A stretch of DNA of 18,981 nucleotides from a virus (Duplodnaviria > Heunggongvirae > Uroviricota > Caudoviricetes), in IMG/VR virus record IMGVR_UViG_2558860274_000004, positions 1 to 18,981 of that record. The stretch is one strand, 5' to 3'. Below the pieces are notes generated by a model. The model searched no databases, had not been told where the DNA came from, and saw nothing but the letters and a program-made list of their open reading frames with translations. This document shows positions 1 through 17,841 of this stretch, piece after piece. How positions within the stretch are numbered: position 1 is the first letter of the stretch; each line of letters starts with the position of its first letter. Both the position numbers and the translations under genes were made by a program.

Positions 1-1233
1 ATGACTAAAAAACCATGGGAAAGAAGACTTAAAGATTTATCGCACTTGCTCAAATGCTGCATTGATACATATTTTGACCCTGAATTATTCCGCTTGAATT
101 TGAATCAATTCCTCCAAACCGCAAGAACAGTAACATTTATTATTCAAAAAAACAAAAACCAGATTATAGGATATGACATTTGGTATAACAATAATGTTAT
201 TGAAAAATGGAAAAATGATCCATTAATGGCTTGGGCTAAAAATTCTCGCAATACGATAGAAAAACAAGGCGATTTAGAAATGTATAGCGAGGCAAAGGCT
301 ACTCTTATTTCATCTTACATTGAAGAAAATGACATTGAGTTTATTACAAATGAAAGTATGTTAAACATTGGTATAAAAAAGTTAGTCAGACTTGCACAAA
401 AGAAATTACCTTCATATTTAACTGAATCATCTATTATTAAATCAGAAAGACGATGGGTCGCTAATACGCTAAAAGATTACGAATTATTACATGCCTTAGC
501 TATAATCTATGGCAGAATGTATAACTGCTGTAACTCTCTTGGCATACAAATAAACAATCCAATGGGTGACGATGTGATTTCGCCAACATCATTCGACTCT
601 TTATTTGATGAAGCCAGGAGAATAACTTATTTAAAATTAAAAGATTACTCCATAAGCAAATTGTCATTTAGCATGATACAATATGATAATAAAATAATTC
701 CTGAAGATATTAAAGAGCGTCTAAAACTGGTAGATAAGCCTAAAAATATCACTTCGACAGAAGAGTTAGTTGACTATACAGCCAAGCTTGCAGAAACGAC
801 TTTTTTAAAGGACGGTTATCACATTCAAACATTAATTTTTTATGATAAACAATTCCATCCAATTGATTTAATCAATACAACATTTGAAGATCAAGCAGAT
901 AAATATATTTTTTGGCGTTATGCAGCTGACAGAGCCAAAATAACAAATGCCTATGGCTTCATTTGGATATCAGAGCTATGGCTCAGAAAAGCAAGCATCA
1001 ACTCCAATAAACCAATACATACAATGCCAATTATAGATGAAAGACTTCAGGTAATTGGAATTGATTCAAATAATAATCAAAAATGTATTTCATGGAAAAT
1101 AGTTAGAGAAAATGAAGAAAAAAAACCGACTTTAGAAATATTAACAGCAGACTCAAAACATGACGAAAAACCATATTTCATGCGTTCAGTCTTAAAAGCA
1201 ATTGGCGGTGATGTAAACACTATGAACAATTGA
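1..1233 (+). CDS. hypothetical protein (410 aa), AT-rich orphan, function unknown
   Basis: Long uninterrupted ORF starting at ATG at position 1 and ending with TGA at 1231-1233. Composition is visibly AT-rich (about one-third G+C in the first 120 nt by hand count), unlike the rest of the window. No motif I can assign. Convergent with the Q-like gene. Confidence 0.6.
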   Translation: MTKKPWERRLKDLSHLLKCCIDTYFDPELFRLNLNQFLQTARTVTFIIQKNKNQIIGYDIWYNNNVIEKWKNDPLMAWAKNSRNTIEKQGDLEMYSEAKATLISSYIEENDIEFITNESMLNIGIKKLVRLAQKKLPSYLTESSIIKSERRWVANTLKDYELLHALAIIYGRMYNCCNSLGIQINNPMGDDVISPTSFDSLFDEARRITYLKLKDYSISKLSFSMIQYDNKIIPEDIKERLKLVDKPKNITSTEELVDYTAKLAETTFLKDGYHIQTLIFYDKQFHPIDLINTTFEDQADKYIFWRYAADRAKITNAYGFIWISELWLRKASINSNKPIHTMPIIDERLQVIGIDSNNNQKCISWKIVRENEEKKPTLEILTADSKHDEKPYFMRSVLKAIGGDVNTMNN

Positions 1234-1361: not shown

Positions 1362-1759
1362 TTACTCCATAACAGGGACAGCAGGCCACTCAATATCAGG
1401 TGCAGTTGATGTATCAACACGGTTCAGCAACACCCGATACTTCTTCCAGACTTCCAGCAACGAGGTTTCTTCCTCCGTTGCGATTTCCAGATCTGCAGCA
1501 TCCTGAAGTGGCGCGATATGCTCACTGGCTACCTGCATCAGGCTGTTTTTTGTTTCTTCCGCTTCAGGCGAGCCATGCATCCACAAATGATCATCGCGTC
1601 ATCGTCACAACATTGCGGGCGGGATTTTACTTTTGAAGGGATTAGTCCTTTAAATCCTGCAGCAATAGACGACCAGGTGACATCCTCGTGATTATTTGCC
1701 ACCCATGCCCCCCAACGTTCAAGAACCATTTGAATATCACGCATCAACTTTCTCCACAA
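1362..1759 (-). pseudogene. Q-family late antiterminator-like gene, split into two frames at a T6/A6 homopolymer
   Basis: ORF 1538..1759 (minus) encodes [24 protein letters not shown]...[16 protein letters not shown], which I recall as the N-terminus of small enterobacterial Q-like antiterminators. It stops just after a homopolymer (plus-strand tttttt at 1545-1550). ORF 1362..1586 continues in another frame. A 1-nt indel in the run would join them into about 130 aa. Confidence 0.5.
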
Positions 1760-2758: not shown

Positions 2759-3304
2759 TCAATGAACGGTATCGAGCAGCTTTAACAGCTCAGGGAATCG
2801 GGATTCGAAGAAATGCGGCTGCGTCTCGCGCGGATTTGCGGGACTGGTGATGTTCTTACCGAACATGCAGCCTTTCGCTGTCAGCGACCAGAATTTTTTG
2901 ATGTTGTTAATCGCGGTACGGCTGTATCGTTCGCGCTGCTCGACGATCCCCAGCTTCACCATCTGGTGATATGCCTGATTAGCCGTCAGGCGGATAACCG
3001 GTCCCCACTCCACCAGCATTCTTTTCACCTGTCTGTCGTCTTCCCACACACCCGCGTGGGTCAGGGCGTCAAACAGCGCCTTGTTATAGTTGTCCAGATC
3101 GCGGATCCGGTTAACTGGCTTTGAAGTACGGGTCTTCGCGTTTTTCTGTGTACGTGCTGACGGACGGCGATAAGCGCAGGGAAAGCTCATCCCATTTTTC
3201 CCGCAGCTTCGACGGGCTGAGCACGTTACGGCACCAGAACGGATCGCGGCTGACGCGGCTGTACATCTCGCAGATTTGTTTGTGAGTACGACCATCCTGC
3301 ACAC
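2759..3304 (-). CDS. RusA-family Holliday-junction resolvase-like ORF (motif clear, N-terminal boundary uncertain)
   Basis: Contains RIRDLDNYNKALFDALTHAGVWEDDRQV, which aligns with the RusA catalytic-Asp core ([28 protein letters not shown] from memory). The ORF-track N-terminus (GTG start, Arg/Ser/Ala-rich) does not look like RusA and overlaps the 3' end of the upstream O-like ORF by about 190 nt in another frame. True start may be the internal ATG near 3190, or the gene is frameshifted. Confidence 0.5.
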   Translation of the reverse strand: MCRMVVLTNKSARCTAASAAIRSGAVTCSARRSCGKNGMSFPCAYRRPSARTQKNAKTRTSKPVNRIRDLDNYNKALFDALTHAGVWEDDRQVKRMLVEWGPVIRLTANQAYHQMVKLGIVEQRERYSRTAINNIKKFWSLTAKGCMFGKNITSPANPRETQPHFFESRFPELLKLLDTVH

Positions 3305-4022
3305 ACATCAGGCGAATTTCGTTTGCCCAGGCTGTCCAGTTCGGTTCTTTGGGACGAACCACCTCGCCGTCACATTCGGCGGCCTGCTCGTACAGGGCAA
3401 TGATTTTTTTCCAGAGCCACTGTGCGCAGGTCAAATCATCCTGCGTTCCCCACTGGCGCTTTTTAGGGCTGAATACAACCGCATCAGGATGGCGAGTTAA
3501 AAAATCCTTTTCAGCCGTCTGCGTGTCCGGTTGCGAAGCGTCCGGACGAGAAGGTTTTTTATCTGACGGATCATGTTTTGATTTTACTGACGGATCCCCG
3601 CCAGATTCTGACGGGTGAAAACCCGCTTTTTTGCCAGATTTCGACGCATCAAATTTTGACGGGTCAGATTTTGATGCGTCAGATTTTGATGCGTCAGATT
3701 TTGACGGGTCAGAATCTGACAGTTGAGAAAATGCCGCTGCCTGAAGCTTCGCAACGTTAAGCTGATAAACATTCGACGCATTGCGGTTACCCTGGCGACG
3801 CGCCTTACGCGTTAACCAGCCTTCTGCTTCCAGCCGTGCGATAGCCGTTCTGACGGTGCTCATCCCCGCGCCAATCTGGCGGGCAATGGTTTCAATTGAT
3901 GGCCAGCACACACCTTCGTCATTACTGAAATCAGCCAGGCGGGCCATAATTGCCACGCTGGATAACTTCATGCCTGACGCAGCGCAACCATCCCATACAT
4001 AGCCGGTTAATTTAGTGCTCAT
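3111..4022 (-). CDS. replication initiator protein (lambda O-like role) with HTH N-terminus and internal iteron-encoded repeat
   Basis: 303-aa ORF with GAGG Shine-Dalgarno 7 nt upstream of ATG at 4022. N-terminal winged-HTH-like segment (SIETIARQIGAGMSTVRTAIARLEAEGWL). Central SKSDASKSDASKSDPSKFDASK repeat is encoded by 15-bp direct DNA repeats, the arrangement of lambdoid O genes that carry ori inside the coding sequence. Confidence 0.7.
   Translation of the reverse strand: MSTKLTGYVWDGCAASGMKLSSVAIMARLADFSNDEGVCWPSIETIARQIGAGMSTVRTAIARLEAEGWLTRKARRQGNRNASNVYQLNVAKLQAAAFSQLSDSDPSKSDASKSDASKSDPSKFDASKSGKKAGFHPSESGGDPSVKSKHDPSDKKPSRPDASQPDTQTAEKDFLTRHPDAVVFSPKKRQWGTQDDLTCAQWLWKKIIALYEQAAECDGEVVRPKEPNWTAWANEIRLMCVQDGRTHKQICEMYSRVSRDPFWCRNVLSPSKLREKWDELSLRLSPSVSTYTEKREDPYFKAS
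3580..3725. repeat. iteron array (candidate prophage origin of replication) inside the initiator gene
   Basis: At least four tandem 15-bp units (gtcagattttgatgc, gtcagattttgatgc, gtcagattttgacgg, gtcagaatctgacag) at about 3656-3722, plus degenerate copies upstream (ctgacggatc at 3582-3600). Each unit has internal dyad symmetry (tcagattttga vs tcaaaatctga). Confidence 0.6.
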
Positions 4023-4031
4023 GACCGACCT

Positions 4032-4370
4032 CTATTTCCCTGAATTTACGACGAAACTGTTCGAGCGGACTGAAGCATTCATGCTCATAACCTTCGCGGA
4101 GGTAGATAACCCGTTGTGTTTCCGGCTCCCAACGAATGACTCTGACGGGCACTCCGTAGTGATCTTTGAACCAGCGGTTAACTTGTCGCAAAGGACTGTC
4201 TCCTTCTGCCGGTTGAAATCACCCACAGCCCACTCTGCAAAGCTGTGGGTTACAATTTCCCTATCACCTGGTACATTCACTGCATAGCAATATTCCACCT
4301 TCGCTTTTCCACCCGGTACAGGAAGCGCAATCAGTTGCGAGCGACGGTAGTGTGTTGTTAAACTGTTCAT
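4032..4370 (-). CDS. hypothetical protein (112 aa)
   Basis: ATG at 4370 overlaps the TGA stop of the upstream CII-like gene (ATGA overlap, translational coupling). Stop at 4032-4034 lies 10 nt before the initiator start. No recognisable motif. Confidence 0.45.
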
Positions 4371-4924
4371 GCGTTAGTTTCTCCACAACCAGAAGCAATC
4401 GACGCCACGACGCCCGGAGCTGCACACTCGCGGGCGTCATTACTTTCTGAAATGCAAAAAATTTTGTAGACAAGTGCTGCATGCTCCTGCAGCTTCGAAA
4501 TTGAGAGATACAGCTCGTCGTTAATTGCTGTCTTCTCATGCGGTTCCACTACGCCGTCTTCGATTGCTGAACGAATCTGTTTTGAATAACTGCCGATCTG
4601 TTCAATGACTTCCAGCAGACGCTGGTTAATATCGGCGTTGTCCACATCCTCGACGTCAGGAAGAGACACAAAGACGCCATTTGCAGACTGCGCCACAGCA
4701 TCAGCAATGAAGTGAGTGCCACCAGCACGCTGTAAAACCATTGCCCATCCCAGCGGGAAAATCTGATCGCCATCTGCACGAAGGCGGTTGAATAAAGCGT
4801 TTTCTGTTACATCGAGCCAGTCAGCCGCTTCAGCGTAACCACCCGGCAACGCCGCGATAGTTTTTCTGACAGCTTTCACGTACCACTCAGGCTGTTTTTC
4901 CACTTTCCAGTGATGATTACCCAC
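4367..4924 (-). CDS. CII-like phage regulatory protein (family assignment tentative)
   Basis: 185-aa ORF directly downstream of cro-like gene in the same operon. GTG start preceded by AGGAGG 6 nt upstream. Position and size fit CII-like prophage regulators; no catalytic motif seen. Confidence 0.5.
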
Positions 4925-5177
4925 GGCTTACCTCCTGTTCCTGTGGTTTAAACCCATTCTGGTTTTGGCTAGATTGAAAACGTGCCGGATAAAGAATCTG
5001 CATTTCGCTGATTTCACCCTTAAAAAAATTGGCCAGACGTTCTGCAAGATCGATAGATGGAATTTGTTCCAGTCTTTCAATACGACTCAGCGTCGCTGGA
5101 TTGACCTGAACGCCAGCAGCAACATGCTGCAAAGTAAATCCGTGCGCCTTACGCACATTCCGTAATGGTGATTGCAT
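4917..5177 (-). CDS. Cro/XRE-type HTH transcriptional regulator (cro-like)
   Basis: 86-aa ORF divergent from the cI-like gene. GGAGG Shine-Dalgarno 4-8 nt upstream of ATG at 5175-5177. Helix-turn-helix-like segment FTLQHVAAGVQVNPATLSRIE. Confidence 0.75.
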   Translation of the reverse strand: MQSPLRNVRKAHGFTLQHVAAGVQVNPATLSRIERLEQIPSIDLAERLANFFKGEISEMQILYPARFQSSQNQNGFKPQEQEVSRG

Positions 5178-5274
5178 ATGACCTCCACATATTGCGTGAT
5201 GAGCATATTATTTCACGCAAATATTTTGCGCAAGTTGATTTGCTTAACGCGCAATAAAGAAATGTAATAAACGC
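5178..5274. promoter_or_regulatory. immunity-region divergent promoters and operators between cro-like and cI-like genes
   Basis: 97-bp intergenic region with repeated TTGCG(T/C) / (A/G)CGCAA half-sites: ttgcgtga-N13-tcacgcaa (5192-5220), cgcaaa-tat-tttgcg (5215-5229), ttgcgcaa (5226-5233), acgcgcaa (5247-5254). Candidate -10 taatat for the leftward (cro) promoter on the minus strand at 5205-5210. Candidate ttgctt/tgtaat rightward promoter giving a near-leaderless cI transcript. Confidence 0.55.
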
Positions 5275-5967
5275 ATGAACATAGGAAACCGAGTCAGACA
5301 ACTTCGCCAGGCGAAGAACATGAAAATCGCCGATCTCGCTGAAGCAATAGGAGTGGATGCGGCGAATATCTCACGCCTGGAAACAGGTAAGCAGAAACAA
5401 TTCACTGAACAAGCCCTGAGTAATATTGCCAAGAGCTTAGGTGTTGATATTGCTGATCTCTTTACCTCAGACTTCAAAAGTAATACTGTATGTAAAAACA
5501 GTATTAGTGAGGATGTTGCGCAGGTGAAGGATGTATTCCGTATTGAAATGCTGGATGTCAGTGCCAGTGCGGGAAATGGCCTTATCCAGGGCGGTGATGT
5601 CATTGATGTGATTCATGCCATTGAATACAGAACTGATAATGCTGTATCGATGTTTGGCGGACGGCCAGCCAATCACATTAAAGTTATCAACGTTCGTGGG
5701 GACAGTATGTGTCCAGCCATTGAGCCAGGAGATCTCATCTTCGTTGATGTCAGTATCAATCAGTTTGATGGAGATGGTATCTATGTATTTGGTTTTGATG
5801 ATAAAATTTATGTCAAACGACTGCAAATGATACCTGACAAACTACTGGTGATTTCTGATAACCAGATTTACCGTGAATGGGGAATTACCAGCGAAAATGA
5901 ACACCGGTTTATGGTCTTTGGAAAGGTCTTAATCAGCCAGTCACAAACCCTTAAGCGACACAATTAA
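5275..5967 (+). CDS. cI-like repressor, LexA/S24 family (N-terminal XRE HTH plus C-terminal autocleaving peptidase domain)
   Basis: 230-aa ORF. HTH segment MKIADLAEAIGVDAANISRLETG. Ala-Gly candidate cleavage site in SASAGNG (about residues 99-100). Ser in VRGDSMCP and Lys in YVKRL spaced 37 residues apart as in the LexA Ser/Lys dyad. Confidence 0.9.
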   Translation: MNIGNRVRQLRQAKNMKIADLAEAIGVDAANISRLETGKQKQFTEQALSNIAKSLGVDIADLFTSDFKSNTVCKNSISEDVAQVKDVFRIEMLDVSASAGNGLIQGGDVIDVIHAIEYRTDNAVSMFGGRPANHIKVINVRGDSMCPAIEPGDLIFVDVSINQFDGDGIYVFGFDDKIYVKRLQMIPDKLLVISDNQIYREWGITSENEHRFMVFGKVLISQSQTLKRHN

Positions 5968-5987
5968 CCCTTACCTCCTCATCAATT

Positions 5988-6009
5988 AGCCACCCAAAGG
6001 TGGCTTTTC
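5988..6009 (+). terminator. intrinsic terminator downstream of cI-like gene
   Basis: agccacc (5988-5994), caaa loop, ggtggct (5999-6005), followed by tttcatt. Confidence 0.5.
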
Positions 6010-6485
6010 ATTACCCTTTAAATTGCATATCTCGCAACAAAAGCACTTGCATAATGCGCAACTTCATTTTATCTTTCTTTCCAGACAAACAAACAAGGTA
6101 CTAACAAAATTTGGTTGTAACACGGCGTATGGCACATGCGTCGTTAGCGGTCTGGGGACGTTAAAGGGGACAATCCACTCCTTGCTCGGGCAAACAAACC
6201 AGGTAGCCGGAATGTGCAAGTCAATGATGATGCTGATAAGACGCCTAACCAGCGTGGCGATCCGGTTTGACGCCTGGGAAGAGACCAGGGTGCAACGATG
6301 AGGGCATTTATAGAGCCGCGACAAAGTGTGGTGCCGTAACTGGCTAAGTGCTCTCAGCGTTGTGGTAATCCGCGAAATGGCGCGGCGGTAAGTATGGCGG
6401 GGTTACTCTTTCCCCGTTGAGGACACCGGATTGTCAGGTTGACCATACGCCTGAGTGACAACCCCACCACAACAGCCACTGCTTT

Positions 6486-6532
6486 GGCGGTACCAGTTTG
6501 TACACTTGCTTCCTGCTGGTACCGCTCTTTTT
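6486..6532 (+). terminator. strong hairpin plus T-tract inside the long leader upstream of the early-left genes
   Basis: ggcggtaccag (6486-6496), about 19-nt loop, ctggtaccgc (6516-6525), followed by tcttttt (6526-6532). Confidence 0.5.
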
Positions 6533-6669
6533 ACAAAACAGAGAAGAGCATCACCGGACGACGGGCTCATAACCCAATCCATCCGGGCGGCTGCCACCGC
6601 AGGTGTTCTTCTCTGTTTTGTGGAGAAACCAACCGACCTTGCAGGGTCGATATGATGAGGAGCAGCAAA

Positions 6670-7032
6670 ATGGCTAGCGAACGCAGTACTGATGTGCAGG
6701 CATTTATCGGGGAGCTGGACGGCGGCGTATTTGAAACCAAAATCGGCGCAGTTCTCAGTGAAGTCGCTTCCGGTGTGATGAACACGAAAACCAAAGGTAA
6801 GGTCTCACTCAACCTGGAAATCGAACCATTTGATGAGAACCGTGTGAAAATCAAACACAAACTCTCATATGTTCGCCCGACTAACCGCGGGAAAATTTCC
6901 GAAGAAGACACCACCGAAACGCCGATGTATGTCAATCGCGGTGGTCGCCTGACTATTCTGCAGGAAGACCAGGGACAATTACTGACTCTTGCCGGTGAAC
7001 CTGACGGAAAACTACGCGCAGCAGGTCATTAA
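6670..7032 (+). CDS. small early prophage protein (about 121 aa), hypothetical
   Basis: ORF track gives 6439..7032, but the plausible start is ATG at 6670 with GAGGAG about 8 nt upstream. The upstream extension overlaps the terminator hairpin and has no ribosome-binding site. Size resembles a YfdP-like protein (recollection only). Confidence 0.5.
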   Translation: MASERSTDVQAFIGELDGGVFETKIGAVLSEVASGVMNTKTKGKVSLNLEIEPFDENRVKIKHKLSYVRPTNRGKISEEDTTETPMYVNRGGRLTILQEDQGQLLTLAGEPDGKLRAAGH

Positions 7033-7097
7033 TATCGTTCTTAATTAACTGATTATTTATCTCATCACTGAATATCTTTATATAGTGAGGACTTATT

Positions 7098-7922
7098 ATG
7101 TCTCAGAACTTAGACGCAACCGCAATTAATCAAATCCATGCCCTTATTTCTGCTCAGGGTGTTAATGAAATTATCAGTAATATTGGTGCCGATGCTGTGG
7201 CATTGCCTGAGAATTTCCGCATTCATGATCTGGAAAAATTTAATTTAAATCGCTTCCGTTTCCGTGGTGCGCTTTCCACTGCCAGCATCGATGACTTTAC
7301 CCGTTATTCTAAAGATCTTGCAGATGAAGGCACCCGCTGCTTTATCGATGCTGATAATATGCGTGCCGTCAGTGTACTTAACCTGGGTACTATTGATGAA
7401 CCAGGTCACGCAGATAACACCGCCACTCTCAAACTGAAAAAGACAGCACCGTTCTCTGCCCTGTTGTCTGTTAACGGCGAGCGTAACTCCCAGAAGTCAC
7501 TGGCAGAATGGATTGAAGACTGGGCCGACTACCTTGTGGGCTTTGATGCTAATGGTGACGCTATTCAGGCAACAAAAGCGGCTGCGGCAGTCCGTAAAAT
7601 CACGATTGAAGCAAACCAGACCGCTGATTTTGAAGATAATGACTTCAGCGGCAAACGCTCCCTGATGGAGTCTGTCGAAGCGAAGACCAAAGACATTATG
7701 CCAGTGGCATTTGAATTTAAATGCGTTCCGTTTGAAGGTCTGAAAGAACGTCCGTTTAAATTACGCCTCAGCATTATCACTGGCGATCGTCCTGTACTGG
7801 TTCTGCGCATTATTCAGCTGGAGGCGGTGCAGGAAGAAATGGCTAACGAATTTCGTGATCTGCTTGTTGAGAAATTCAAGGACAGCAAAGTAGAAACCTT
7901 TATTGGTACTTTCACCGCCTGA
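7098..7922 (+). CDS. DUF2303-like prophage protein (YfdQ-like, 274 aa)
   Basis: ATG at 7098 with GAGGA 8 nt upstream. Length and gene order (followed by an HD-domain gene and DUF551 genes) match my recollection of the yfdPQRST block of E. coli prophages. Identity not verified. Confidence 0.6.
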
Positions 7923-8049
7923 TTTCATTACTGCAAATGCCCCTGCGGGGGCATTTATGGAAACGTAATTTACTCAATAATCGCCGGATGGTGAGGGATT
8001 CTTTTTACCAGAATTCAGCGCGGTGCAGCGCATATACGTGGAGAACAAA

Positions 8050-8586
8050 ATGTCATTTATCAAAACTTTTTCCGGGAAGCATTTTTATTATGACAGGATA
8101 AATAAAGACGACATCGATATTAACGATATCGCGGTTTCCCTTTCAAATATCTGTCGCTTTGCCGGTCATCTTTCGCACTTCTACAGCGTCGCCCAACATG
8201 CGGTTCTTTGCAGCCAGCTGGTGCCGCAGGAATTTGCTTTTGAAGCGTTAATGCATGATGCAACAGAAGCGTATTGCCAGGACATTCCCGCACCACTGAA
8301 ACGCCTTCTTCCTGACTATAAACGGATGGAAGAAAAAATAGACGCCGTAATCCGTGAGAAATACGGGTTACCCCCGGTTATGAGTACACCCGTGAAATAT
8401 GCCGATCTCATCATGCTGGCAACCGAACGCCGCGATCTCGGGCTTGATGATGGCTCTTTCTGGCCTGTACTGGAAGGCATCCCGGCAACAGAGATGTTCA
8501 ACGTGATTCCACTGGCACCGGGCCATGCCTACGGGATGTTTATGGAACGTTTTAACGATTTATCGGAGTTACGCAAATGCGCATGA
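8050..8586 (+). CDS. HD-domain phosphohydrolase-like protein (YfdR-like, 178 aa)
   Basis: Probable start at ATG 8050 (GGAGA 6 nt upstream); ORF track begins at 8023. Candidate HD-type metal-binding residues in ...SHFYSVAQHAV...MHDATEAY... Stop overlaps the next gene start. Confidence 0.7.
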   Translation: MSFIKTFSGKHFYYDRINKDDIDINDIAVSLSNICRFAGHLSHFYSVAQHAVLCSQLVPQEFAFEALMHDATEAYCQDIPAPLKRLLPDYKRMEEKIDAVIREKYGLPPVMSTPVKYADLIMLATERRDLGLDDGSFWPVLEGIPATEMFNVIPLAPGHAYGMFMERFNDLSELRKCA

Positions 8587-8939
8587 ATGTTTTCGAAATG
8601 GAAGGGTTTCTTCGCGGGAAATGTGTACCGCGAGATCTGAAAGTGAACGAAACAAATGCTGAGTACCTGGTACGTAAATTCGACGCGCTTGAAGCTAAAT
8701 GTGCGGCACTGGAAAACAAAATAATACCAGTGTCAACTGAACTGCCACCAGCAAATGAAAGTGTTCTGTTATTTGATGCTAATGGAGAAGGCTGGCTGAT
8801 TGGCTGGCGTTCTCTCTGGTACACCTGGGGACAAAAAGAAACCGGAGAATGGCAGTGGACATTTCAGGTCGGGGACCTTGAAAACTTCAATATCACTCAC
8901 TGGGCAGTAATGCCCAAAGCGCCGGAGGCTGGAGCATAA
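8577..8939 (+). CDS. DUF551-type small prophage protein (YfdS-like, 120 aa)
   Basis: Start overlaps the preceding stop (ATGCGCATGA). C-terminal ITHWAVMPKAPE resembles the THWMPLPxPP signature of DUF551. Confidence 0.6.
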   Translation: MRMNVFEMEGFLRGKCVPRDLKVNETNAEYLVRKFDALEAKCAALENKIIPVSTELPPANESVLLFDANGEGWLIGWRSLWYTWGQKETGEWQWTFQVGDLENFNITHWAVMPKAPEAGA

Positions 8940-9451
8940 TGACCACATTTACCAATAAAGAACTGATTAAAGAAATCAAAGAACGAATCAGCAGCCTAGA
9001 GGTTCGAGACGATATTGAGCGCCGTGCTTATGAAATTGCTCTGGCATCGCTGGAAGAGGAGCCGGTGGCATGGCTGCATTCAGACAATGGCTTAGGTATT
9101 CCGGCAATAACCAGGAGCAAAAACATTGCTGACAGTTGGTTATCAATGGGCTGGTATGTTCAGCCGCTATATATAGCCAAGCCAGTACTGGTGGTGCCAG
9201 ATGCTCGTCCGTCTTTAAATAATGGCATAGTCGGTTTTGATGAAGGCTGGAACGCCTGCCGCGCTACCATGCTTCATGGTGCCAAACCTGTAAGCCAGAC
9301 TTACAAGTTGAACAAGCTGTCGGGCAACTCTCCGGTAACTCAGGATGGTTGGATAAGCTGTAGTGAGCGAATGCCGAACGATAAACAGTATGTTTGGTGT
9401 TGGGGTAAGTCTTACGGCTGGACTGAGTGCGATACCTTCGAAGGGTATTAG
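8939..9451 (+). pseudogene. 5' portion (170 codons) of an Ead/DUF551-type gene interrupted by IS66-family insertion
   Basis: ORF ends at a TAG created at the insertion junction (ta from host plus g from the IS end). The reading frame resumes after the IS at 11992 and ends with VTHWMPLPEPPQEVK, the DUF551 signature. Confidence 0.7.
9443..9450. repeat. 8-bp target-site duplication (gggtatta), left copy, IS66-family element
   Basis: Identical to 11983-11990, immediately flanking the IS ends. Confidence 0.85.
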
Positions 9452-9535
9452 TAAGCGTAAACTGACCGCCGTATGTAGCCATCAGACGAGAATTGGTAAC
9501 TTAGACGCCCATCTGATATAGACGGACATCTAAGT

Positions 9536-9961
9536 ATGGAATTACAGGACTGGCGAAAAGAACCTCGTAAAAACTATTCGAATGAATTCAAACTTCGTAT
9601 GGTGGAACTGGCATCACAACCTGGAGCTTGTGTTGCACAGATTGCACGTGAAAATGGCGTCAATGATAATGTTATTTTCAAATGGCTCAGGCTCTGGCAG
9701 AACGAAGGGCGTGTTTCGCGGCGTCTTCCGGTAACGACCTCTTCTGACACTGGCGTTGAATTATTACCTGTAGAAATAACGCCGGATGAGCAGAAAGAAC
9801 CTGTGGCGGCCATTGCGCCGTCTTTATCCACTTCCACTCAGACCAGAGTCAGTGCCAGTTCCTGCAAGGTGGAATTCCGTCACGGCAACATGACGCTGGA
9901 AAATCCATCGCCAGAGCTGCTCACAGTGTTGATCCGTGAACTGACCGGGAGGGGAAGATGA
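9536..9961 (+). CDS. tnpA: IS66-family accessory protein TnpA (orf1)
   Basis: 141-aa ORF with HTH-like N-terminus (NYSNEFKLRMVELASQPGACVAQIARENGV), first gene in the IS, overlapping tnpB by 4 nt. Confidence 0.8.
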   Translation: MELQDWRKEPRKNYSNEFKLRMVELASQPGACVAQIARENGVNDNVIFKWLRLWQNEGRVSRRLPVTTSSDTGVELLPVEITPDEQKEPVAAIAPSLSTSTQTRVSASSCKVEFRHGNMTLENPSPELLTVLIRELTGRGR

Positions 9962-10308
9962 TCTCACTCCCATCAGGTACCCGTATCTGGCTCGTTGCCG
10001 GCGTTACCGATATGCGTAAATCCTTCAACGGACTGGGAGAACAGGTACAACATGTGCTGAATGATAATCCCTTCTCCGGTCACCTGTTTATCTTCCGTGG
10101 CCGACGGGGTGACACCGTCAAAATTCTTTGGGCTGATGCTGATGGTCTGTGCCTGTTCACCAAACGCCTGGAGGAAGGCCAGTTTATCTGGCCTGCGGTA
10201 CGTGACGGCAAGGTATCCATTACCCGCTCGCAACTGGCAATGCTCCTCGATAAGCTGGACTGGCGTCAGCCAAAAACATCCAGCCGTAACTCACTGACAA
10301 TGTTGTAA
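9958..10308 (+). CDS. tnpB: IS66-family TnpB (orf2)
   Basis: 116-aa ORF (LPSGTRIWLVAGVTDMRKSFNGL...) in the characteristic middle position of IS66 elements. Confidence 0.8.
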   Translation: MISLPSGTRIWLVAGVTDMRKSFNGLGEQVQHVLNDNPFSGHLFIFRGRRGDTVKILWADADGLCLFTKRLEEGQFIWPAVRDGKVSITRSQLAMLLDKLDWRQPKTSSRNSLTML

Positions 10309-10338
10309 AAAACTCCTGACCGCATTATAAAAACGGTC

Positions 10339-11952
10339 ATGAGTCAGAAATACCTCATTCGCATCGCAGAGCTGGAAAGGTTGCTCTCTGAGCAGGCTGA
10401 AGCCCTCCGTCAGAAAGACCAGCAACTGAGTCTGGTTGAAGAGACGGAAGCCTTCCTGCGCTCTGCACTGACACGTGCCGAAGAAAAGATCGAAGAAGAT
10501 GAACGGGAAATAGAACATCTGCGGGCTCAGATAGAAAAACTGCGCCGGATGCTGTTCGGTACCCGTTCTGAAAAACTGCGTCGTGAAGTTGAACTGGCTG
10601 AGGCTCTGCTGAAACAACGTGAACAGGACAGCGATCGTTACAGTGGGCGGGAAGACGATCCTCAGGTTCCCCGCCAGTTGCGACAGTCGCGCCATCGTCG
10701 TCCGTTACCGGCACACCTTCCCCGTGAAATACACCGCCTGGAGCCAGAAGAAAGCTGTTGCCCGGAGTGTGGCGGTGAGCTGGATTATCTGGGGGAAGTC
10801 AGCGCTGAACAGCTGGAACTGGTGAGCAGTGCCCTGAAAGTGATCCGCACAGAACGGGTAAAAAAAGCCTGTACAAAATGTGACTGTATTGTTGAAGCAC
10901 CGGCGCCGTCCCGCCCGATAGAGCGTGGTATCGCGGGCCCCGGATTACTTGCCCGCGTGTTAACGGGAAAATACTGCGAACATCTGCCACTGTATCGTCA
11001 GAGTGAAATCTTTGCCCGCCAGGGTGTCGAACTGAGCCGGGCCTTACTCTCCAACTGGGTTGACGCGTGCTGCCAGTTAATGACACCGGTGAATGATGCC
11101 CTGTACCGTTATGTAATGAACACCCGCAAGGTTCACACTGATGACACACCGGTAAAGGTACTGGCACCGGGTCAGAAAAAGGCGAAAACAGGGCGTATCT
11201 GGACGTATGTCCGGGATGATCGCAATGTGGGTTCGTCATCTCCTCCAGCGGTCTGGTTCGCGTACTCGCCGAACCGGCAGGGGAAACACCCGGAGCAACA
11301 CCTCCGCCCCTTCCGGGGTATCCTGCAGGCGGATGCGTTCACAGGTTACGACAGGTTGTTCAGTGCAGGACGTGAAGGTGGTGCACTGACAGAAGTTGCG
11401 TGCTGGGCCCATGCCCGGCGAAAAATCCACGATGTATACATCAGCAGCAAAAGTGCGACGGCAGAAGAAGCACTGAAGCGAATCAGTGAACTGTACGCCA
11501 TCGAGGATGAAATACGGGGATTACCGGAGTCAGAGCGTCTTGCCGTCAGGCAGCAGCGAAGCAAAGTGTTACTGACGTCGCTGCATGAATGGATGGTGGA
11601 GAAGAATGGTACGCTGTCGAAAAAATCCAGACTGGGCGAAGCGTTCAGCTATGTACTGAATCAGTGGGATGCCCTCTGTTATTACAGTGATGACGGTCTG
11701 GCGGAGGCGGATAATAATGCTGCGGAAAGAGCGCTTCGTGCAGTCTGTCTCGGAAAGAAAAACTTTATGTTCTTTGGCAGCGATCACGGCGGCGAGCGTG
11801 GAGCACTGTTGTACGGGCTGATCGGCACCTGCCGTCTGAACGGTATCGATCCGGAAGCGTATCTGCGCCATATCCTGAGCGTACTGCCGGAATGGCCTTC
11901 CAACCGAGTTGATGAACTCCTGCCATGGAACGTAGTACTCACCAATAAATAA
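10339..11952 (+). CDS. tnpC: IS66-family transposase TnpC (orf3)
   Basis: 537-aa ORF with N-terminal coiled-coil/leucine-zipper region, CxxC...CxxC zinc-finger-like motif (CCPECGGEL...CTKCDC) and a C-terminal catalytic region, as in IS66 transposases. Confidence 0.85.
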   Translation: MSQKYLIRIAELERLLSEQAEALRQKDQQLSLVEETEAFLRSALTRAEEKIEEDEREIEHLRAQIEKLRRMLFGTRSEKLRREVELAEALLKQREQDSDRYSGREDDPQVPRQLRQSRHRRPLPAHLPREIHRLEPEESCCPECGGELDYLGEVSAEQLELVSSALKVIRTERVKKACTKCDCIVEAPAPSRPIERGIAGPGLLARVLTGKYCEHLPLYRQSEIFARQGVELSRALLSNWVDACCQLMTPVNDALYRYVMNTRKVHTDDTPVKVLAPGQKKAKTGRIWTYVRDDRNVGSSSPPAVWFAYSPNRQGKHPEQHLRPFRGILQADAFTGYDRLFSAGREGGALTEVACWAHARRKIHDVYISSKSATAEEALKRISELYAIEDEIRGLPESERLAVRQQRSKVLLTSLHEWMVEKNGTLSKKSRLGEAFSYVLNQWDALCYYSDDGLAEADNNAAERALRAVCLGKKNFMFFGSDHGGERGALLYGLIGTCRLNGIDPEAYLRHILSVLPEWPSNRVDELLPWNVVLTNK

Positions 11953-11982
11953 GCGTCAATACGGTGCTCCGTTGACGCTTAC

Positions 11983-11991: not shown

Positions 11992-12099
11992 GATTGGTCG
12001 AGAAACAAATGGTGGGCAGTTACTGACGATGGGGAAGAACCGGCATCGAAAGTAACCCACTGGATGCCGCTACCGGAGCCACCGCAGGAGGTGAAGTAA
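11992..12099 (+). pseudogene. 3' portion of the IS66-interrupted DUF551-type gene
   Basis: In frame with 8939..9450 once the IS and one TSD copy are removed: ...EGY-Y-DWSRNKWWAVTDDGEEPASKVTHWMPLPEPPQEVK, stop TAA at 12097-12099. Confidence 0.7.
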
Positions 12100-12293
12100 T
12101 GAACAACTTAATGACAACTAAACAAGTCGCCGACTTCTGTGGCGTTTCAGTATCGACCGTTCTTCGCTGGAACAGCGTAAACAGGAGAACTGGCCAGAAA
12201 TACAGGCCTGACTTTCCAGATCCTGATATTAAATCCTGCCCAAATAAATGGGCATCACGCAAGATATACAGGTTTGCTGGAGTTATTGAGTGA
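12099..12293 (+). CDS. small HTH DNA-binding protein, AlpA/excisionase-like (64 aa)
   Basis: ATG overlaps the preceding stop (TAATG). TTKQVADFCGVSVSTVLRW resembles the HTH of AlpA/Xis-type prophage regulators. Assignment from motif only. Confidence 0.5.
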   Translation: MNNLMTTKQVADFCGVSVSTVLRWNSVNRRTGQKYRPDFPDPDIKSCPNKWASRKIYRFAGVIE

Positions 12294-12495: not shown

Positions 12496-15400
12496 TCACA
12501 CGCTGCGCCTTCGAGAATATTCATTTAATCGCTGATAACGAACATCTTGCTCCAGTTGTGGAGCAGCTTGAACAATTTGAAGCAAGCATTGCCCCAACTC
12601 TCGAGGCCCCCAGTGTTGTTCGGCAATCACGGCATTCAGCAGGGATAGAGCGTCCGCAGGATATCGGCTGCAAATATCTGATTCTAGCAAAAGGCGAACG
12701 TCGTAGCTAAGGTGTTCGAGCGGTTGCAGCCAGTCCTGCACCACTGCCAAAGCCGCCGGAAATTCACCTCGGGCAGCAATCACCATACGAGTCAACGATT
12801 CGGATATGCGTGGGGTGGCCAAGTTGCGGGACTTTGGCCAAACCTGTTGCCAAAATGGCTGGACACGATTTTTCCAATACTCCTCGCGCTGATCGCCCGC
12901 ACCTTCAAGTGCCTGGTATAACGCCTGCGCGGCTACCTCCAGACCTTCTTGTGGAAGAGCACTAATTGCCGTTCGGAACTCCTCCACGGTATATCCCTCG
13001 GTAGGGCCCAGAGCTGCATAAGTCAGGAAAATAGCGAATTGCTGCCGGTGCTCGCCAAGATCAGAATAGTGATTGGCGCTCTCCAAAAAATCTGACTTGA
13101 AAGCTATCAGCAACGGTTCATACAGGCGTGGCGACCAGAGGAAGCCTTCCCACACAGCTTTTGCTTCGACGGGATTACTCCAAGCAAACAAGGGCAATAG
13201 ATACTGTTCGGTCCAAGGTCGATCTACGCGAAAAAATGCGATCAGCCGCGACCCCAGCAACACCCGACCATGGCGGAATAGCTCTATCTGTACATTACAC
13301 AATTTGGTGAAAAGTGTTTTCAATTCAACAGGAAGCAAATCATTGTCATTCGGGTTCTGTTTGAACCATAGGGTGATCAGTGATTGCGTGACATGCCCAA
13401 TGGGATGATTGATCGCCGTAGAAACAGGATCATAGGTCTCAATTCCGTTTCGAATGGTGCTAGACTCTGGGCTTGTTTCTATCATCAGAACCCGACGACA
13501 AAGGGCCAGTAGAATCTCCTCGTGGCAGAGGATGGTCTTCGAAGCCTCCTCCATCCACCAAGTGACAGCGTGGGAAATCTCCTGAAGTACTGCGTCAGGC
13601 ATGTCAAGCACCAACGGTGCGGCGTACCGCCACGAACGCATAATCATCCCTGGTTCAGCCCAAGTCTGCAGAGCTTCACGCCACCGACCAACAGGCCACA
13701 CATCATCTTGTGATAGTTTACGTAACGCATACAGACTGTGAAAAAAGCGCGTACGGCAAACATCACTCCAAGTGTCCTCATAGAAAGGCAGTCTTTCTGG
13801 CATAGGCTTTGCGAGCCATTGCACTAATTCCTGCCACTTACGGGGCGCAATGTCGACATCTATACTCTCCTCGAAGCCTGGATCACCGGTTCCGCTCATC
13901 CAGTGAGAGAATTCATCACGCTCGTTGGTTGCCAGTTGCCATTTTGGGTATGCTGTGGATATTTCCGTCAAACGTGTAGCCGCAGACTCTCCCAAAACAA
14001 GGCCCGCTCCCCTGAGCTTCGCTAGACACAACCAGACGGAATGAGCCACCAAATAATGCCACCTGTCTGCTTCCAAATTATCCTCGTACATCTCGCGCGG
14101 AGGCCCTGCCAAGATAGCAGTTTCCAGACGCTCTTGTGCAATTCCTGTCAGATGTCGTCCCTGCAAAACAAACAGTCTGAATACCTCTCGCCGAGTATCC
14201 GTGGCCCACAACCACCATGAACCGTCCTCTAACAACCAATTAACCCACCGCTCAGGTGGTATGCAGTTGTCTTGGCTTGCGGCAAACAGTGCCAGACGTT
14301 TGAAGGTGGGATATGGCAACTCAAACCAATTCTGAGCAATGCGCGAGGCCTGATCGCTGTCTTTGGCTCGAACGGCTAACCATGAATCCCGAAGTAATTC
14401 AATCAGGCTCACCCAATCGCGGAACCCCCGGTTCTGCCAGTGCGGAGTGATGGACGGCAAATCCCAATGCGAGCGGTCGTGACGATCGTCGGACTCTCCC
14501 AACTCCCGCAACAAGTCCAGTGCATCACGCAACAACTGCTGAAAATCTTCCAACAGGTATGGCAAGGACGATTTCCATGACTCGTCAGCAAGGTCGAACA
14601 GGGTTGAACGTACGTAATCAGCAGTCAGCACCAGCTCCCAATCCACCAATTGCTTGATTCGCAAGGGTTCATCAGTGCTGCTCGAATCGTCTTCACTATA
14701 GCGAAACGGCCGCCTCAACATAACCTTGGGAGAAAGCAACTCGCGTAACTCCAAGCGCAATGTAGTCGTCAAGCCTTCATTCTTTAAGCGGTTTTGCCAA
14801 CGATACAAATCCAGGTTCTGCAATGGCGATTTCACACGACCACTAAGCAGAAGCCGCCATAAAGTAGACATAGGTGGACCAGGAATAGCCAGGGGGGAAT
14901 GCAAGAGAATTTCATCTAACTCAGAAGTCTTACGCTCCCGCATCAGTGCTGCTAAGCGATCTAGTTCGCTCTCAATCAGAAACATCCAACGGTCGTGTAT
15001 TTGTCCGCCGCGTTCAGCAATCCATATGATCAACCTAGGGTCGCCCAGATAACGAACTAGCCAACGGGCTATATGGGACATTACGTCATCCCATTTGCTA
15101 GCACTGACACATCCAGAAACCAGCGACATCTGCGGGGCCAGCTCATAGGGCGCAGGACGCTGAACCAGACTGAATCGGAGTTTCGGGTCAATTTCGACAT
15201 GCGGAGATACACAAAAGCGTGGCAGATCGCTGTATTTAAATCGTTCGTCCGAGAAAGCTTTCAATAACCAATCCAGCGGCGGTGCAGGATTGAGTTCCGC
15301 AAAGCGTTTTGCTGGTAAACCTGATTTATCTGACAAGGCCCACAACATCCGACCAACGAAATCGTCCTGACGAGTGCTGTCCTGCGGGCGGGCCAGAGCA

Positions 15401-16323
15401 TGTTTGACGACTATAGCCTCTTTGCCCTGTATACCATCTCGATAAGTATCTGCCCAAGCGTGCAACGTTTGATGCAGCACTGAATGATCAGTGGAGCCCG
15501 CCGGTACGGTGTAAAGGATAGGAGTGACCCCTTTGGCCTCCCACTCGATGGCTTTCCGGTGCTCCTGCCCCGGCTCACACTCCCCCAGTGCCCATACTTG
15601 TGGTGTGACTTCACCGAGCCTCCGATCTGCTGCAAGCGCATCCATCATGTAGCGCAGTACCGGGTCGTTGATGCTGTAGCCAACGAAGCAGACCACATAG
15701 TTACGAAATAACTCACTCACAAAGCGAGCTGCCCAACGCTCAGTGAGATAAGCCAAGCCAAAGTCACCGCTGGTAACAACCAGACGATTCAGGGCAGTAT
15801 CATCCGCCTTTTCCGGTAACAGCCCATGCAGGTATACAAGTCCATCCCAGCGGCTGTTTTTTGGAATTGGCAGCATCGGCGCTACATAGGCCTGAAAAGC
15901 CTGGCCTGTACGTTTAGCTGCCACATGAAAGAGACGGTCAAAGTTGGTAGTGACCAATCGAAGGGCACCCTCGCGGCTACGGGCTAAACGTAACAGCGCC
16001 GCCTGAGTATCAATAGCGCCCCTACGACGGAGCTTTGGCTTAAGGGCTTTTTCCAACGCGCGTCGGACGGCTATACGCTGCCCTGGTAAGCGCCGTTCCA
16101 GCAAATCTAATGTGCCGTCAAATTGCCCACGCTCGAAAACCTCACGCTCAATTTCTGAAAGTGTTGTTCCGTTCCTCTGGTAAATTAGTTCTACCAACCC
16201 TTTGAAACCAGGTAAACCAGCAGGGTAGGAAATGCCTGCTCCACAGAAGAACACAACGCGCCCTTCCTCGTGCGCCTGCAAAAGCTCATCAGGAATATCA
16301 GGGCCGTTGGTAATGAATTGCAT
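12496..16323 (-). CDS. large SIR2-domain protein (1275 aa): N-terminal SIR2-like NAD+-binding domain plus unassigned C-terminal helical region; candidate single-gene anti-phage defence
   Basis: AGGAGG Shine-Dalgarno 7-8 nt upstream of ATG at 16323. N-terminal motifs VVFFCGAGISYPAGLPGF (GAGIS NAD-binding loop), LVTTNFDRLFH (TQNID-like with catalytic Asn) and VYLHGLL (catalytic His-Gly). No Walker A (GxxxxGK[ST]) found by eye. C-terminal 1000 aa is Leu/Trp/Arg-rich and looks helical-repeat-like. Confidence 0.85.
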   Translation of the reverse strand: MQFITNGPDIPDELLQAHEEGRVVFFCGAGISYPAGLPGFKGLVELIYQRNGTTLSEIEREVFERGQFDGTLDLLERRLPGQRIAVRRALEKALKPKLRRRGAIDTQAALLRLARSREGALRLVTTNFDRLFHVAAKRTGQAFQAYVAPMLPIPKNSRWDGLVYLHGLLPEKADDTALNRLVVTSGDFGLAYLTERWAARFVSELFRNYVVCFVGYSINDPVLRYMMDALAADRRLGEVTPQVWALGECEPGQEHRKAIEWEAKGVTPILYTVPAGSTDHSVLHQTLHAWADTYRDGIQGKEAIVVKHALARPQDSTRQDDFVGRMLWALSDKSGLPAKRFAELNPAPPLDWLLKAFSDERFKYSDLPRFCVSPHVEIDPKLRFSLVQRPAPYELAPQMSLVSGCVSASKWDDVMSHIARWLVRYLGDPRLIIWIAERGGQIHDRWMFLIESELDRLAALMRERKTSELDEILLHSPLAIPGPPMSTLWRLLLSGRVKSPLQNLDLYRWQNRLKNEGLTTTLRLELRELLSPKVMLRRPFRYSEDDSSSTDEPLRIKQLVDWELVLTADYVRSTLFDLADESWKSSLPYLLEDFQQLLRDALDLLRELGESDDRHDRSHWDLPSITPHWQNRGFRDWVSLIELLRDSWLAVRAKDSDQASRIAQNWFELPYPTFKRLALFAASQDNCIPPERWVNWLLEDGSWWLWATDTRREVFRLFVLQGRHLTGIAQERLETAILAGPPREMYEDNLEADRWHYLVAHSVWLCLAKLRGAGLVLGESAATRLTEISTAYPKWQLATNERDEFSHWMSGTGDPGFEESIDVDIAPRKWQELVQWLAKPMPERLPFYEDTWSDVCRTRFFHSLYALRKLSQDDVWPVGRWREALQTWAEPGMIMRSWRYAAPLVLDMPDAVLQEISHAVTWWMEEASKTILCHEEILLALCRRVLMIETSPESSTIRNGIETYDPVSTAINHPIGHVTQSLITLWFKQNPNDNDLLPVELKTLFTKLCNVQIELFRHGRVLLGSRLIAFFRVDRPWTEQYLLPLFAWSNPVEAKAVWEGFLWSPRLYEPLLIAFKSDFLESANHYSDLGEHRQQFAIFLTYAALGPTEGYTVEEFRTAISALPQEGLEVAAQALYQALEGAGDQREEYWKNRVQPFWQQVWPKSRNLATPRISESLTRMVIAARGEFPAALAVVQDWLQPLEHLSYDVRLLLESDICSRYPADALSLLNAVIAEQHWGPRELGQCLLQIVQAAPQLEQDVRYQRLNEYSRRRSV

Positions 16324-16608: not shown

Positions 16609-16616
16609 TGTAGTGG

Positions 16617-17785
<1,169 letters not shown>

Positions 17786-17841
17786 TGGAGCACCTGTGTT
17801 GTTCTGAGGTGAGCATATCACCTCTGTTCAGGTGGCCAAAT

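Follow-up and report, generated by a model that had tools for sequence, protein, structure and literature searches.

A probable SfII/mEp460/ST64B-type immunity module with a LexA box inside cI in a disabled lambdoid prophage

Why should a prophage that can produce neither virions nor lysis proteins still carry an uninterrupted repressor gene together with its operators? This question is raised by a stretch of 18,981 nucleotides (hereafter the window; IMG/VR record IMGVR_UViG_2558860274_000004), which corresponds to record CP007025.1 (assembly GCA_000512125.1) with a base-for-base match across 15,967 compared window bases and takes in nearly the whole of a lambdoid prophage remnant located between prfC and yjjG. 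A previous reading of the DNA alone (the sequence-only reading) had described an intact, SOS-cleavable repressor of the cI type with an operator cluster in a prophage apparently unable to excise or lyse, and had proposed that the switch was retained by selection for superinfection immunity or for SOS-responsive control of the remaining genes, possibly including the cargo. Our analysis suggests that positions 4917-6075 probably constitute a complete immunity module of a lambdoid prophage of the SfII / mEp460 / ST64B type, comprising cI, 15-bp operators and an SOS-cleavage switch. Modules of this kind are ordinary and already annotated in sequenced phages; a LexA operator embedded within cI is the only possibly new element of the locus.

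The cI repressor and its operators

The module follows the order cro, right operator region (OR), cI, terminator, left operator region (OL) and early left genes. The cI gene (5275-5967, plus strand; 693 bp, 230 amino acids) diverges from a cro-like gene (4917-5177, minus strand; 86 amino acids, Pfam HTH_3 E 5.8e-10) across an operator-promoter region of 97 bp, as in other lambdoid immunity regions. The cro-like gene heads the rightward early (PR) operon, is labelled Cro in SfII, PhiR63_1 and Stx2a_1447, and encodes a protein identical to the versions in mEp460 and in the closest E. coli prophage, referred to as L001. It is followed by an intact cII-like regulator (YmfL / Phage_CP76; 4367-4924, minus strand; Pfam PF06892 E 1.2e-13), which carries the cII label in SfII and Stx2a_1447.

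According to Pfam, the cI protein combines an XRE-type helix-turn-helix (HTH) domain (HTH_3/HTH_26/HTH_31 on residues 3-64) with a Peptidase_S24 domain (PF00717 on residues 104-218; 67 bits vs a cut-off of 23.3), the two being joined by a linker. Ser144 and Lys181 (GDS144M, YVK181RL) aligned to S60 and K97 of UmuD in a phmmer search against solved structures, and to S119 and K156 of LexA in a family profile alignment of seven sequences, so that neither catalytic residue is mutated. Their spacing of 37 residues equals that of LexA and both are invariant across seven homologues, as is the SASAG motif (7/7) that contains Ala99-Gly100, 45 residues ahead of Ser144. On the plus strand, the predicted self-cleavage site Ala99-Gly100 is encoded at 5569-5574, the active-site motif GDS144MCPA148 at 5704-5718 (codon of Ser144 at 5704-5706, codon 148 at 5716-5718) and Lys181, the general base of the Ser/Lys dyad, at 5815-5817. 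The Pfam matches and the UmuD and LexA alignments thus bear out the earlier description of a cI-type, LexA-like repressor with HTH, Ala-Gly site and a Ser/Lys dyad at LexA spacing.

The protein is 96.5-98.7% identical to the annotated cI proteins of mEp460, SfII, Stx2a_1447/WGPS2, phiSTEC1575-Stx2k and several PhiR phages including PhiR63_1, 83% identical to Sb38 of ST64B, approximately 70% identical to Klebsiella phage repressors and 52% identical to FsoR, the repressor of Fels-1. This cI type is present in 1,039 of 5,426 complete E. coli genomes (about a fifth), and near-identical repressors occur in free or inducible phages. Within the literature searched, FsoR was the only family member found to have experimental support for self-cleavage: Lemire et al. 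(PMC3121763) describe cleavage products of FsoR after mitomycin C treatment. By analogy to this published result, the cI protein of the window would be expected to cleave itself as well.

To define the operators, seven phages (the window and six relatives) were compared, whose repressors are 67-98% identical and whose cro-cI gaps align ungapped, and a position weight matrix (PWM) was built solely from the sites of the relatives. The conserved operator unit in this comparison is a 15-bp TTGC-N7-GCAA dyad, of which the window contains four exact copies vs 0.68 expected, three of them flanking cI; four of the five best PWM hits in the window start at 5192, 5240, 6023 and 6047. OR1 (TTGCGTGATGAGCAT, 5192-5206; 14.6 bits) deviates from the dyad by one mismatch, lies over the -10/+1 region of the predicted cro promoter PR and recurs as a one-mismatch TTGC-N7-GCAA at -76/-77 from the cI ATG in 7/7 phages. 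OR3 (TTGCTTAACGCGCAA, 5240-5254; 16.5 bits) is exact, shares its left half with the -35 hexamer of the predicted cI promoter PRM and is found as an exact motif at -28/-29 in all seven. Between the two, a possible weak operator OR2 (5219-5233) places a half-site over the PR -35 only, its other half being degenerate and its PWM score low; at this position (-49/-50), Klebsiella, phiNP and Eeyore phages carry a one-mismatch TTGC-N7-GCAA. Beyond the cI terminator, and outside the interval 5178-5967 to which the sequence-only reading had referred, lie OL1 (TTGCATATCTCGCAA, 6023-6037; exact, 18.9 bits, position kept in the seven phages) and OL2 (TTGCATAATGCGCAA, 6047-6061; exact, at 20.8 bits the top PWM hit), the latter overlapping the predicted leftward early promoter PL. 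Their centres are 24 bp apart, compared with 22-24 bp in the relatives. Repeated operators of a single consensus were consequently found at both early promoters, at positions kept in the seven phages, and computational mapping, which had been suggested as a check, recovered OR1, OR3, OL1 and OL2 with a matrix that owed nothing to the window itself.

The earlier account of the operator cluster stood in part. The enrichment in TTGCG/CGCAA half-sites was confirmed: with five such pentamers, the cro-cI gap exceeds every other 97-bp stretch of the window in density (Poisson P 3.6e-6), and inverted repeats were found there. The three overlapping dyads proposed from them were only partly borne out, since the conserved arrangement consists of OR1 and OR3 with a half-site in between, and the additional dyads, including CGCAAATATTTTGCG and TTGCGCAA, are unconserved as dyads outside the E. 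coli-type phages. The perfectly symmetric dyad CGCAAATATTTTGCG (5216-5230), 24 bp centre-to-centre from both OR1 and OR3, was rejected as a shared middle operator, since its conservation does not extend to ST64B, Klebsiella, phiNP or Eeyore; the palindrome TTGCGCAA corresponds to the PR -35 hexamer, and for the block TTGCGCAAGTTGNTTTGC a pair of -35 hexamers placed back to back is a better reading than an operator. Three further operator-like hits, at 14650-14664 (within dsr1, 16.4 bits), 12248-12262 (12.3 bits) and 1730-1744 (11.8 bits), are all coding, none is at a promoter, and their number is slightly above the ~0.7-0.8 expected; they probably arose by chance.

In all three predicted promoters, the -35 hexamer coincides with an operator half-site. 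PR (5233-5205, minus strand) would consist of TTGCGC (5233-5228), a 17-bp spacer and TAATAT (5210-5205), and in the ungapped alignment of the seven phages TTGCGCAA is invariant and the -10 kept as TAAYAT. PRM (5240-5268, plus strand) would combine TTGCTT (5240-5245) with TGTAAT (5263-5268) across a 17-bp spacer, with TGTAAT and the TTGC of the -35 invariant at fixed spacing in the seven phages. PL (6047-6075, plus strand) is predicted from TTGCAT (6047-6052), a 17-bp spacer and TATCTT (6070-6075), the latter kept in six of the seven. No Shine-Dalgarno (SD) sequence was found upstream of the cI ATG at 5275, and transcription from PRM would start at about the A of this ATG, so that the cI mRNA would be leaderless, as is the cI mRNA made from PRM in lambda. 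In GenBank, the cI start of mEp460 (L002:2546), Stx2a_1447 (L215:1246) and phiNP (L086:1546) is placed at the internal Met16, which would remove the first HTH helix; given the conserved N-terminus and the promoter geometry, we favour the upstream ATG lacking an SD sequence. Downstream of cI, a terminator scan identified an intrinsic terminator (5988-6005, plus strand; hairpin -11.8 kcal/mol, z -4.0). A hairpin with a T run occupies the same place after cI in all relatives, and a terminator is annotated there in SfII.

In the switch suggested by these features, a cI dimer would bind the 15-bp TTGC-N7-GCAA operators, OR1 and the weak OR2 would shut PR, OL1 and OL2 would shut PL, and OR3, positioned over the PRM -35, would make cI auto-limiting. 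DNA damage would give rise to RecA filaments, which would promote cI self-cleavage at Ala99-Gly100 via Ser144/Lys181 and thereby open PR and PL. Both the occupancy of the operators and the positions of the promoters are predicted from sequence.

Several points weigh against this picture of an intact, conventional switch. PR, PRM and PL all score under the threshold of a simple consensus promoter scan; the predicted operator strength, with OR3 above OR1 and OR2 nearly absent, is unlike that of lambda, and the switch logic may differ; the recency of the prophage decay, discussed below, explains the intactness of the switch, yet selection is possible; and the cI allele carries a substitution that could alter its cleavage rate, so that the attribute "SOS-cleavable" is not guaranteed for it. 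This substitution, an A-to-G change at 5716, is the sole cI change relative to L001 and replaces ACC, found elsewhere, by GCC (5716-5718), which converts Thr148 of the GDSMCPT motif to alanine (T148A). It is non-synonymous, lies four residues after Ser144 and is derived and private to the window lineage. Thr was encountered at position 148 in each of 141 retrieved homologous loci, the most distant of them at 42% identity, and among the 1,039 E. coli genomes with the cI gene no exact match to the 151-bp stretch around codon 148 was found, with all of the top matches keeping Thr148. We take this threonine to be part of an SMxPT motif common to lambda cI and signal peptidase. Such a degree of conservation would fit a repressor that still binds DNA but in which T148A alters self-cleavage, leaving the switch locked (Ind-like) or leaky rather than normally SOS-inducible. 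However, the aligned residue is Gly in LexA and UmuD, both of which are nonetheless capable of cleavage, from which it follows that a hydroxyl group at 148 is mechanistically dispensable in the superfamily, and the exchange of Thr for Ala is conservative. We consider a locked or leaky switch decidedly unlikely, but calling the window's cI "intact" requires the T148A caveat, as the effect of the change is uncertain.

A LexA box within the cI linker

A scan of the window for LexA boxes revealed one exact CTGT-N8-ACAG match, and it is located inside cI (TACTGTATGTAAAAACAGTA, 5484-5503), where it spans linker codons 70-77. Its approximate heterology index of 2.1 falls within the range of recA/sulA/umuDC. 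The box is one base off that of SfII, which is presumably identical to the umuDC operator. It was found at the same codon position in 90 of the 90 loci recruited by protein similarity, with an invariant core (TACTGT, CAGT) and a freely varying 8-bp spacer, and is kept where protein identity has dropped to 50-52%, as in Fels-1 and ENT47670, while being absent at 42-47%. T71, V72 and S76 are the only invariant residues of the linker, and it is their codons that form the half-sites of the box; these three residues account for three of the five single-codon columns among the 48 invariant columns with at least fourfold degenerate residues. The element thus unites a 16-bp palindrome, AT-rich in its spacer and low in heterology index, with conservation beyond coding need, and this constraint at the nucleotide level makes it very likely that LexA binds inside cI. 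Most likely, the box would place some of the expression of cI under direct control by LexA.

Other CTGT-N8-ACAG matches, in distant cI genes, were dismissed on account of their GC-rich spacers and heterology indices of 14-18. Likewise, a minus-strand promoter at the box was rejected, as most relatives would have CACTGT or CACTGG for its -10 and a conserved -35 is missing. In the literature searched, the coverage of which was incomplete, we found no description of an intragenic LexA box or of a TTGC-N7-GCAA operator specificity, and no LexA-binding or transcript data for the cI box; PMC3121763 makes no mention of the LexA box of the FsoR gene. If functional, the embedded operator would let LexA act directly on a cI-type switch, and it is testable in the available phages mEp460, PhiR63_1 and Fels-1.

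What such an operator might control is suggested by a promoter-like element inside cI (5461-5489, plus strand), in which TTTACC (5461-5466) is followed by a 17-bp spacer and TACTGT (5484-5489), so that the putative -10 hexamer forms the start of the LexA box. Both hexamers and their spacing are kept in seven homologues, although the residues encoded between them vary. A search of viral contigs for the pattern TTTAC-N18-TACTGT-N8-ACAGT returned 120 loci, 49 of them in cI homologues of the family and 71 elsewhere, and most of the latter lie upstream of genes of ~60 residues resembling the LexA-controlled antirepressors of the Gifsy type described by Lemire et al. (PMC3121763). Downstream of the box, an SD-like GAGGA (5509-5513, plus strand) precedes an in-frame GTG (Val84, 5524-5526), a candidate internal start for a C-terminal fragment of 147 residues; Met92, which lacks conservation, was rejected as an internal start. 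An SD-like motif with an in-frame start at most 48 nt past the box was detected in 23 of 29 distinct linker variants vs 9 of 319 control segments (2.8%) from the same genes.

These features would be compatible with the box being the operator of an SOS-inducible internal promoter, from which a 147-residue fragment devoid of the HTH but with cleavage site and S24 domain would be expressed as a built-in antirepressor. By pairing with full-length cI, this fragment would weaken operator binding under direct LexA control. The conservation of the box at the DNA level, the -35-like hexamer held at 17 bp over variable residues, the like architecture ahead of the Gifsy-type antirepressor-like small genes and the excess of SD-like motifs with in-frame starts all argue for this reading, and the plural "cleavage products" used for C-terminally tagged FsoR in PMC3121763 offers a lead, though no more than that. 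On the other hand, TACTGT makes a poor -10, the candidate start moves between lineages (Val84 here, the equivalent of Val87 elsewhere) and is missing in ~4 of 14 of them, and linkers rich in Glu, Gly and Asp could by themselves yield SD-like strings. Moreover, according to the same paper, Fels-1 induces even with a non-cleavable LexA (lexA3 background), which makes the element non-essential and would limit any role of the box to a modulatory one. LexA could alternatively act at the box as a roadblock to transcripts from PRM. Taken together, we regard the truncated antirepressor as a tentative and doubtful proposal. Its extension to a clade-wide dual SOS input, in which RecA-stimulated self-cleavage would be paired with a LexA-repressed internal promoter for an HTH-less fragment (either a dominant-negative antirepressor or a tuner of the induction threshold) in Fels-1, ENT47670, ST64B, SfII, mEp460, some Stx2a phages and Klebsiella phages, appears rather unlikely to us.

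Decay of the prophage and the question of selection

The window lacks lysis and structural genes, as had been noted before, and a single deletion explains their loss. Q had been described as frameshifted; instead, it keeps its first ~61 codons (1747-1563; Pfam Phage_antitermQ profile 1-66/118) and is truncated there; at 1563-1565 it continues into the final 68 codons of tfa, a tail-fibre assembly gene (1565-1362; Caudo_TAP profile 67-130/131). The resulting 'tfa / Q' fusion (1362-1747, minus strand) represents the deletion scar, and megablast breakpoints of the two parts meet at 1563-1565. Elsewhere, tfa resides at the far prophage end beside an Ea47-like gene, dinI and prfC, which implies that one deletion took all lysis, head and tail genes. 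An Rfam match to the IS009 "sRNA" at 1405-1607 (minus strand), although above the gathering score, was discarded because it falls on coding sequence at the 3' end of the tfa remnant; only its badly aligned tail crosses the deletion junction, which it does not contradict.

The interruption of the integrase gene int (17842-18981, minus strand) was confirmed as well. An element of the IS3 family (1,247 bp, 16609-17855, minus strand; Pfam rve and HTH_Tnp_1) is inserted one codon past the predicted catalytic Tyr (LGHK-x7-Y motif), and comparison with L001 by blastn and of the integrase translations showed the last 33 residues to be replaced by 4, from which a loss of recombination activity is expected. 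With lysis and virion genes gone and excision presumably lost through the truncation of int, the remnant qualifies as a defective prophage that can make neither virions nor lysis proteins, and as the late genes are missing, derepression could switch on early genes only. Compared to L001, two internal deletions are also seen in the nin region (2759-3304 and 3111-4022, minus strand), which fused a 122-bp RusA fragment to the tail of a KilA-N gene and replaced the last ~15 codons of an O-like gene; a methyltransferase gene, a small gene of the LexA family and yfdN have gone with them.

All this damage is very recent. L001, which keeps Q and the lysis genes, differs from the window by five substitutions in 4263-9450 (5.2 kb), and neither int nor a 4.6-kb region that includes dsr1 shows any. 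None of 5,426 complete E. coli genomes contained the Q'-'tfa junction, nor did an exact search detect it in the GTDB species representatives; it was found only in a few assemblies, two of which, compared across the junction, are identical to the window over 6.5-6.8 kb. Calculated by size alone, the chance that the 693-bp cI gene escapes five disruptive events in 18,981 bp is ~83%. As the decay is young and escape is the neutral expectation, the intactness of cI needs no selection, and the only change in cI, non-synonymous and at an invariant site, does not point to strong purifying selection. An intact gene in a young, wrecked prophage is not evidence of selection, and the proposed retention by selection therefore finds no backing in the few substitutions and the narrow distribution of the junction.

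The switch might nevertheless be kept by selection, either for immunity against homoimmune phages (of the mEp460, SfII or Stx2a_1447 type) or for the silencing of harmful early genes. In line with this, cro, the cII-like gene, cI, OR and OL are untouched, with the five disruptive events lying elsewhere in the element, and early genes, among them the O-like replication gene, are still present downstream of PR. Essential repressors are also known from cryptic prophages, namely RacR and DicA. Furthermore, free phages, Stx2a phages included, have an almost identical DNA-binding domain and almost identical operators, and cross-immunity is expected on these grounds. Against these arguments stand the near-identity to a relative that retains Q and lysis genes, the confinement of the junction to a handful of identical assemblies, the high chance of escape and the position of the single cI change, and we judge maintenance by selection to be rather improbable. 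Regardless of its cause, the persistence of the switch implies that the remnant should still confer immunity to homoimmune phages, including Stx2a- and Stx2k-converting ones, which bears on the question of who can be lysogenised.

The suggestion that the repressor might control the cargo was not upheld. The anti-phage sirtuin gene dsr1 (12496-16323, minus strand), situated between a small xis-like open reading frame (ORF; 12099-12293, plus strand; weak HTH_17 match) and int, is encoded on the strand opposite the PL operon and behind an IS66-family element, and the Ea47-like gene (1-1233, plus strand; 410 amino acids) at the left end of the window is convergent with the PR operon. Both are thus misplaced for control by cI, and neither the PWM nor the motif scan found an operator at the 5' end of either gene. 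The orientation of dsr1 is that of int, and E. coli strain 19451123 carries a copy of the gene with 100% identity. The Ea47-like gene was assigned to the lambda Ea47 family PF26900 in precomputed annotations; hmmscan with the Pfam copy used did not find PF26900 at 1-1233. At the left prophage end, ~350-400 bp left of the window, TTGACA and a tandem pair of LexA boxes (CACTGTTTATTCATACAGTT and TACTGTATACAAACACAGTA; L217:4072-4119) stand ahead of a dinI-like gene. This accessory gene is probably SOS-controlled via LexA, not via cI, and with the box in cI and the two ahead of the dinI-like gene, the SOS input of the element is richer than the sequence-only reading assumed.

As for the remaining gene content, the region between the Q' fusion and the cII-like gene encodes, according to Pfam, a DUF968 protein, the RusA/KilA-N fusion, the O-like HTH_36 protein and a DUF4222 protein. 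To the right of cI, a leader of ~700 bp is followed by yfdP, yfdQ, yfdR and two DUF551 genes; within it, the ~600 bp between the predicted PL and yfdP (6066-6670) show no convincing gene. The IS66-family element (2,532 bp, 9451-11982, plus strand) was recognised by its Pfam IS66 domains and by blastn breakpoints that overlap by 8 bp, corresponding to an 8-bp target duplication, and sits inside the early-left operon, with the DUF551 genes on one side and the xis-like ORF and dsr1 on the other. Rfam searches of the whole window, complemented by a permissive scan of 4000-7200, returned no RNA family in the immunity region. An equivalent of STnc1310, a 74-nt RNA of ST64B that lies in the gap after cI, was also rejected, as this segment is non-homologous in the window; in ST64B, this RNA goes up under peroxide or NO shock.

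Comparison with known systems

With lambda cI and LexA-type proteins (MEROPS S24), the repressor shares the combination of HTH and S24 domains, the Ala-Gly site and the Ser/Lys dyad. The arrangement is likewise that of the lambda immunity region: cI and cro diverge, operators flank cI, cro is followed by a cII-like gene and cI by a terminator, and the cI mRNA is probably leaderless. In contrast, there is little sequence similarity to lambda cI, and the best matches among solved structures are to HTH domains of the SinR/434 type and to UmuD. The operators are 15-bp TTGC-N7-GCAA dyads instead of the 17-bp sites of lambda; OR comprises two clear sites instead of three, the strongest of which lies over cI's own promoter; rexAB is absent; and a LexA box occupies the cI linker.

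The closest counterparts are SfII, mEp460, Stx2a_1447/WGPS2, phiSTEC1575-Stx2k and PhiR63_1, which share the immunity type, the same OL sites and an identical or nearly identical Cro; OR differs by 1-2 nt from that of mEp460, PhiR63_1 and Stx2a_1447. These phages are complete, whereas the copy in the window belongs to a remnant without late genes and carries the private T148A. FsoR of Fels-1 has the same length, the SASAG site, the GDSM..TIEPGD motif and a LexA box at the same codon position, but the intergenic region of Fels-1 contains no TTGC-N7-GCAA sites, which indicates a different DNA-binding specificity.

The element inside cI resembles the promoters of the antirepressors GfoA/GftA of the Gifsy phages and Tum of phage 186, where a strong LexA box also overlies TTTAC(A/C)-17-TACTGT and provides a direct LexA input to induction. 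Unlike in these phages, it lies here within the repressor gene and in sense orientation, and its product would be a truncated repressor rather than a separate small protein. If functional, the LexA operator in cI would make the textbook division into cleavable repressors on the one hand and LexA-controlled antirepressors on the other less sharp.

Repressors have also been retained in cryptic prophages of E. coli K-12, as exemplified by RacR (Rac), DicA (Qin) and CohE (e14). As in these remnants, repressor and operators survive here in a prophage that can no longer form phages, and loss of the repressor would free the early genes. In contrast to the old and widespread K-12 remnants, however, the remnant described here is found in few identical assemblies and is near-identical to L001.

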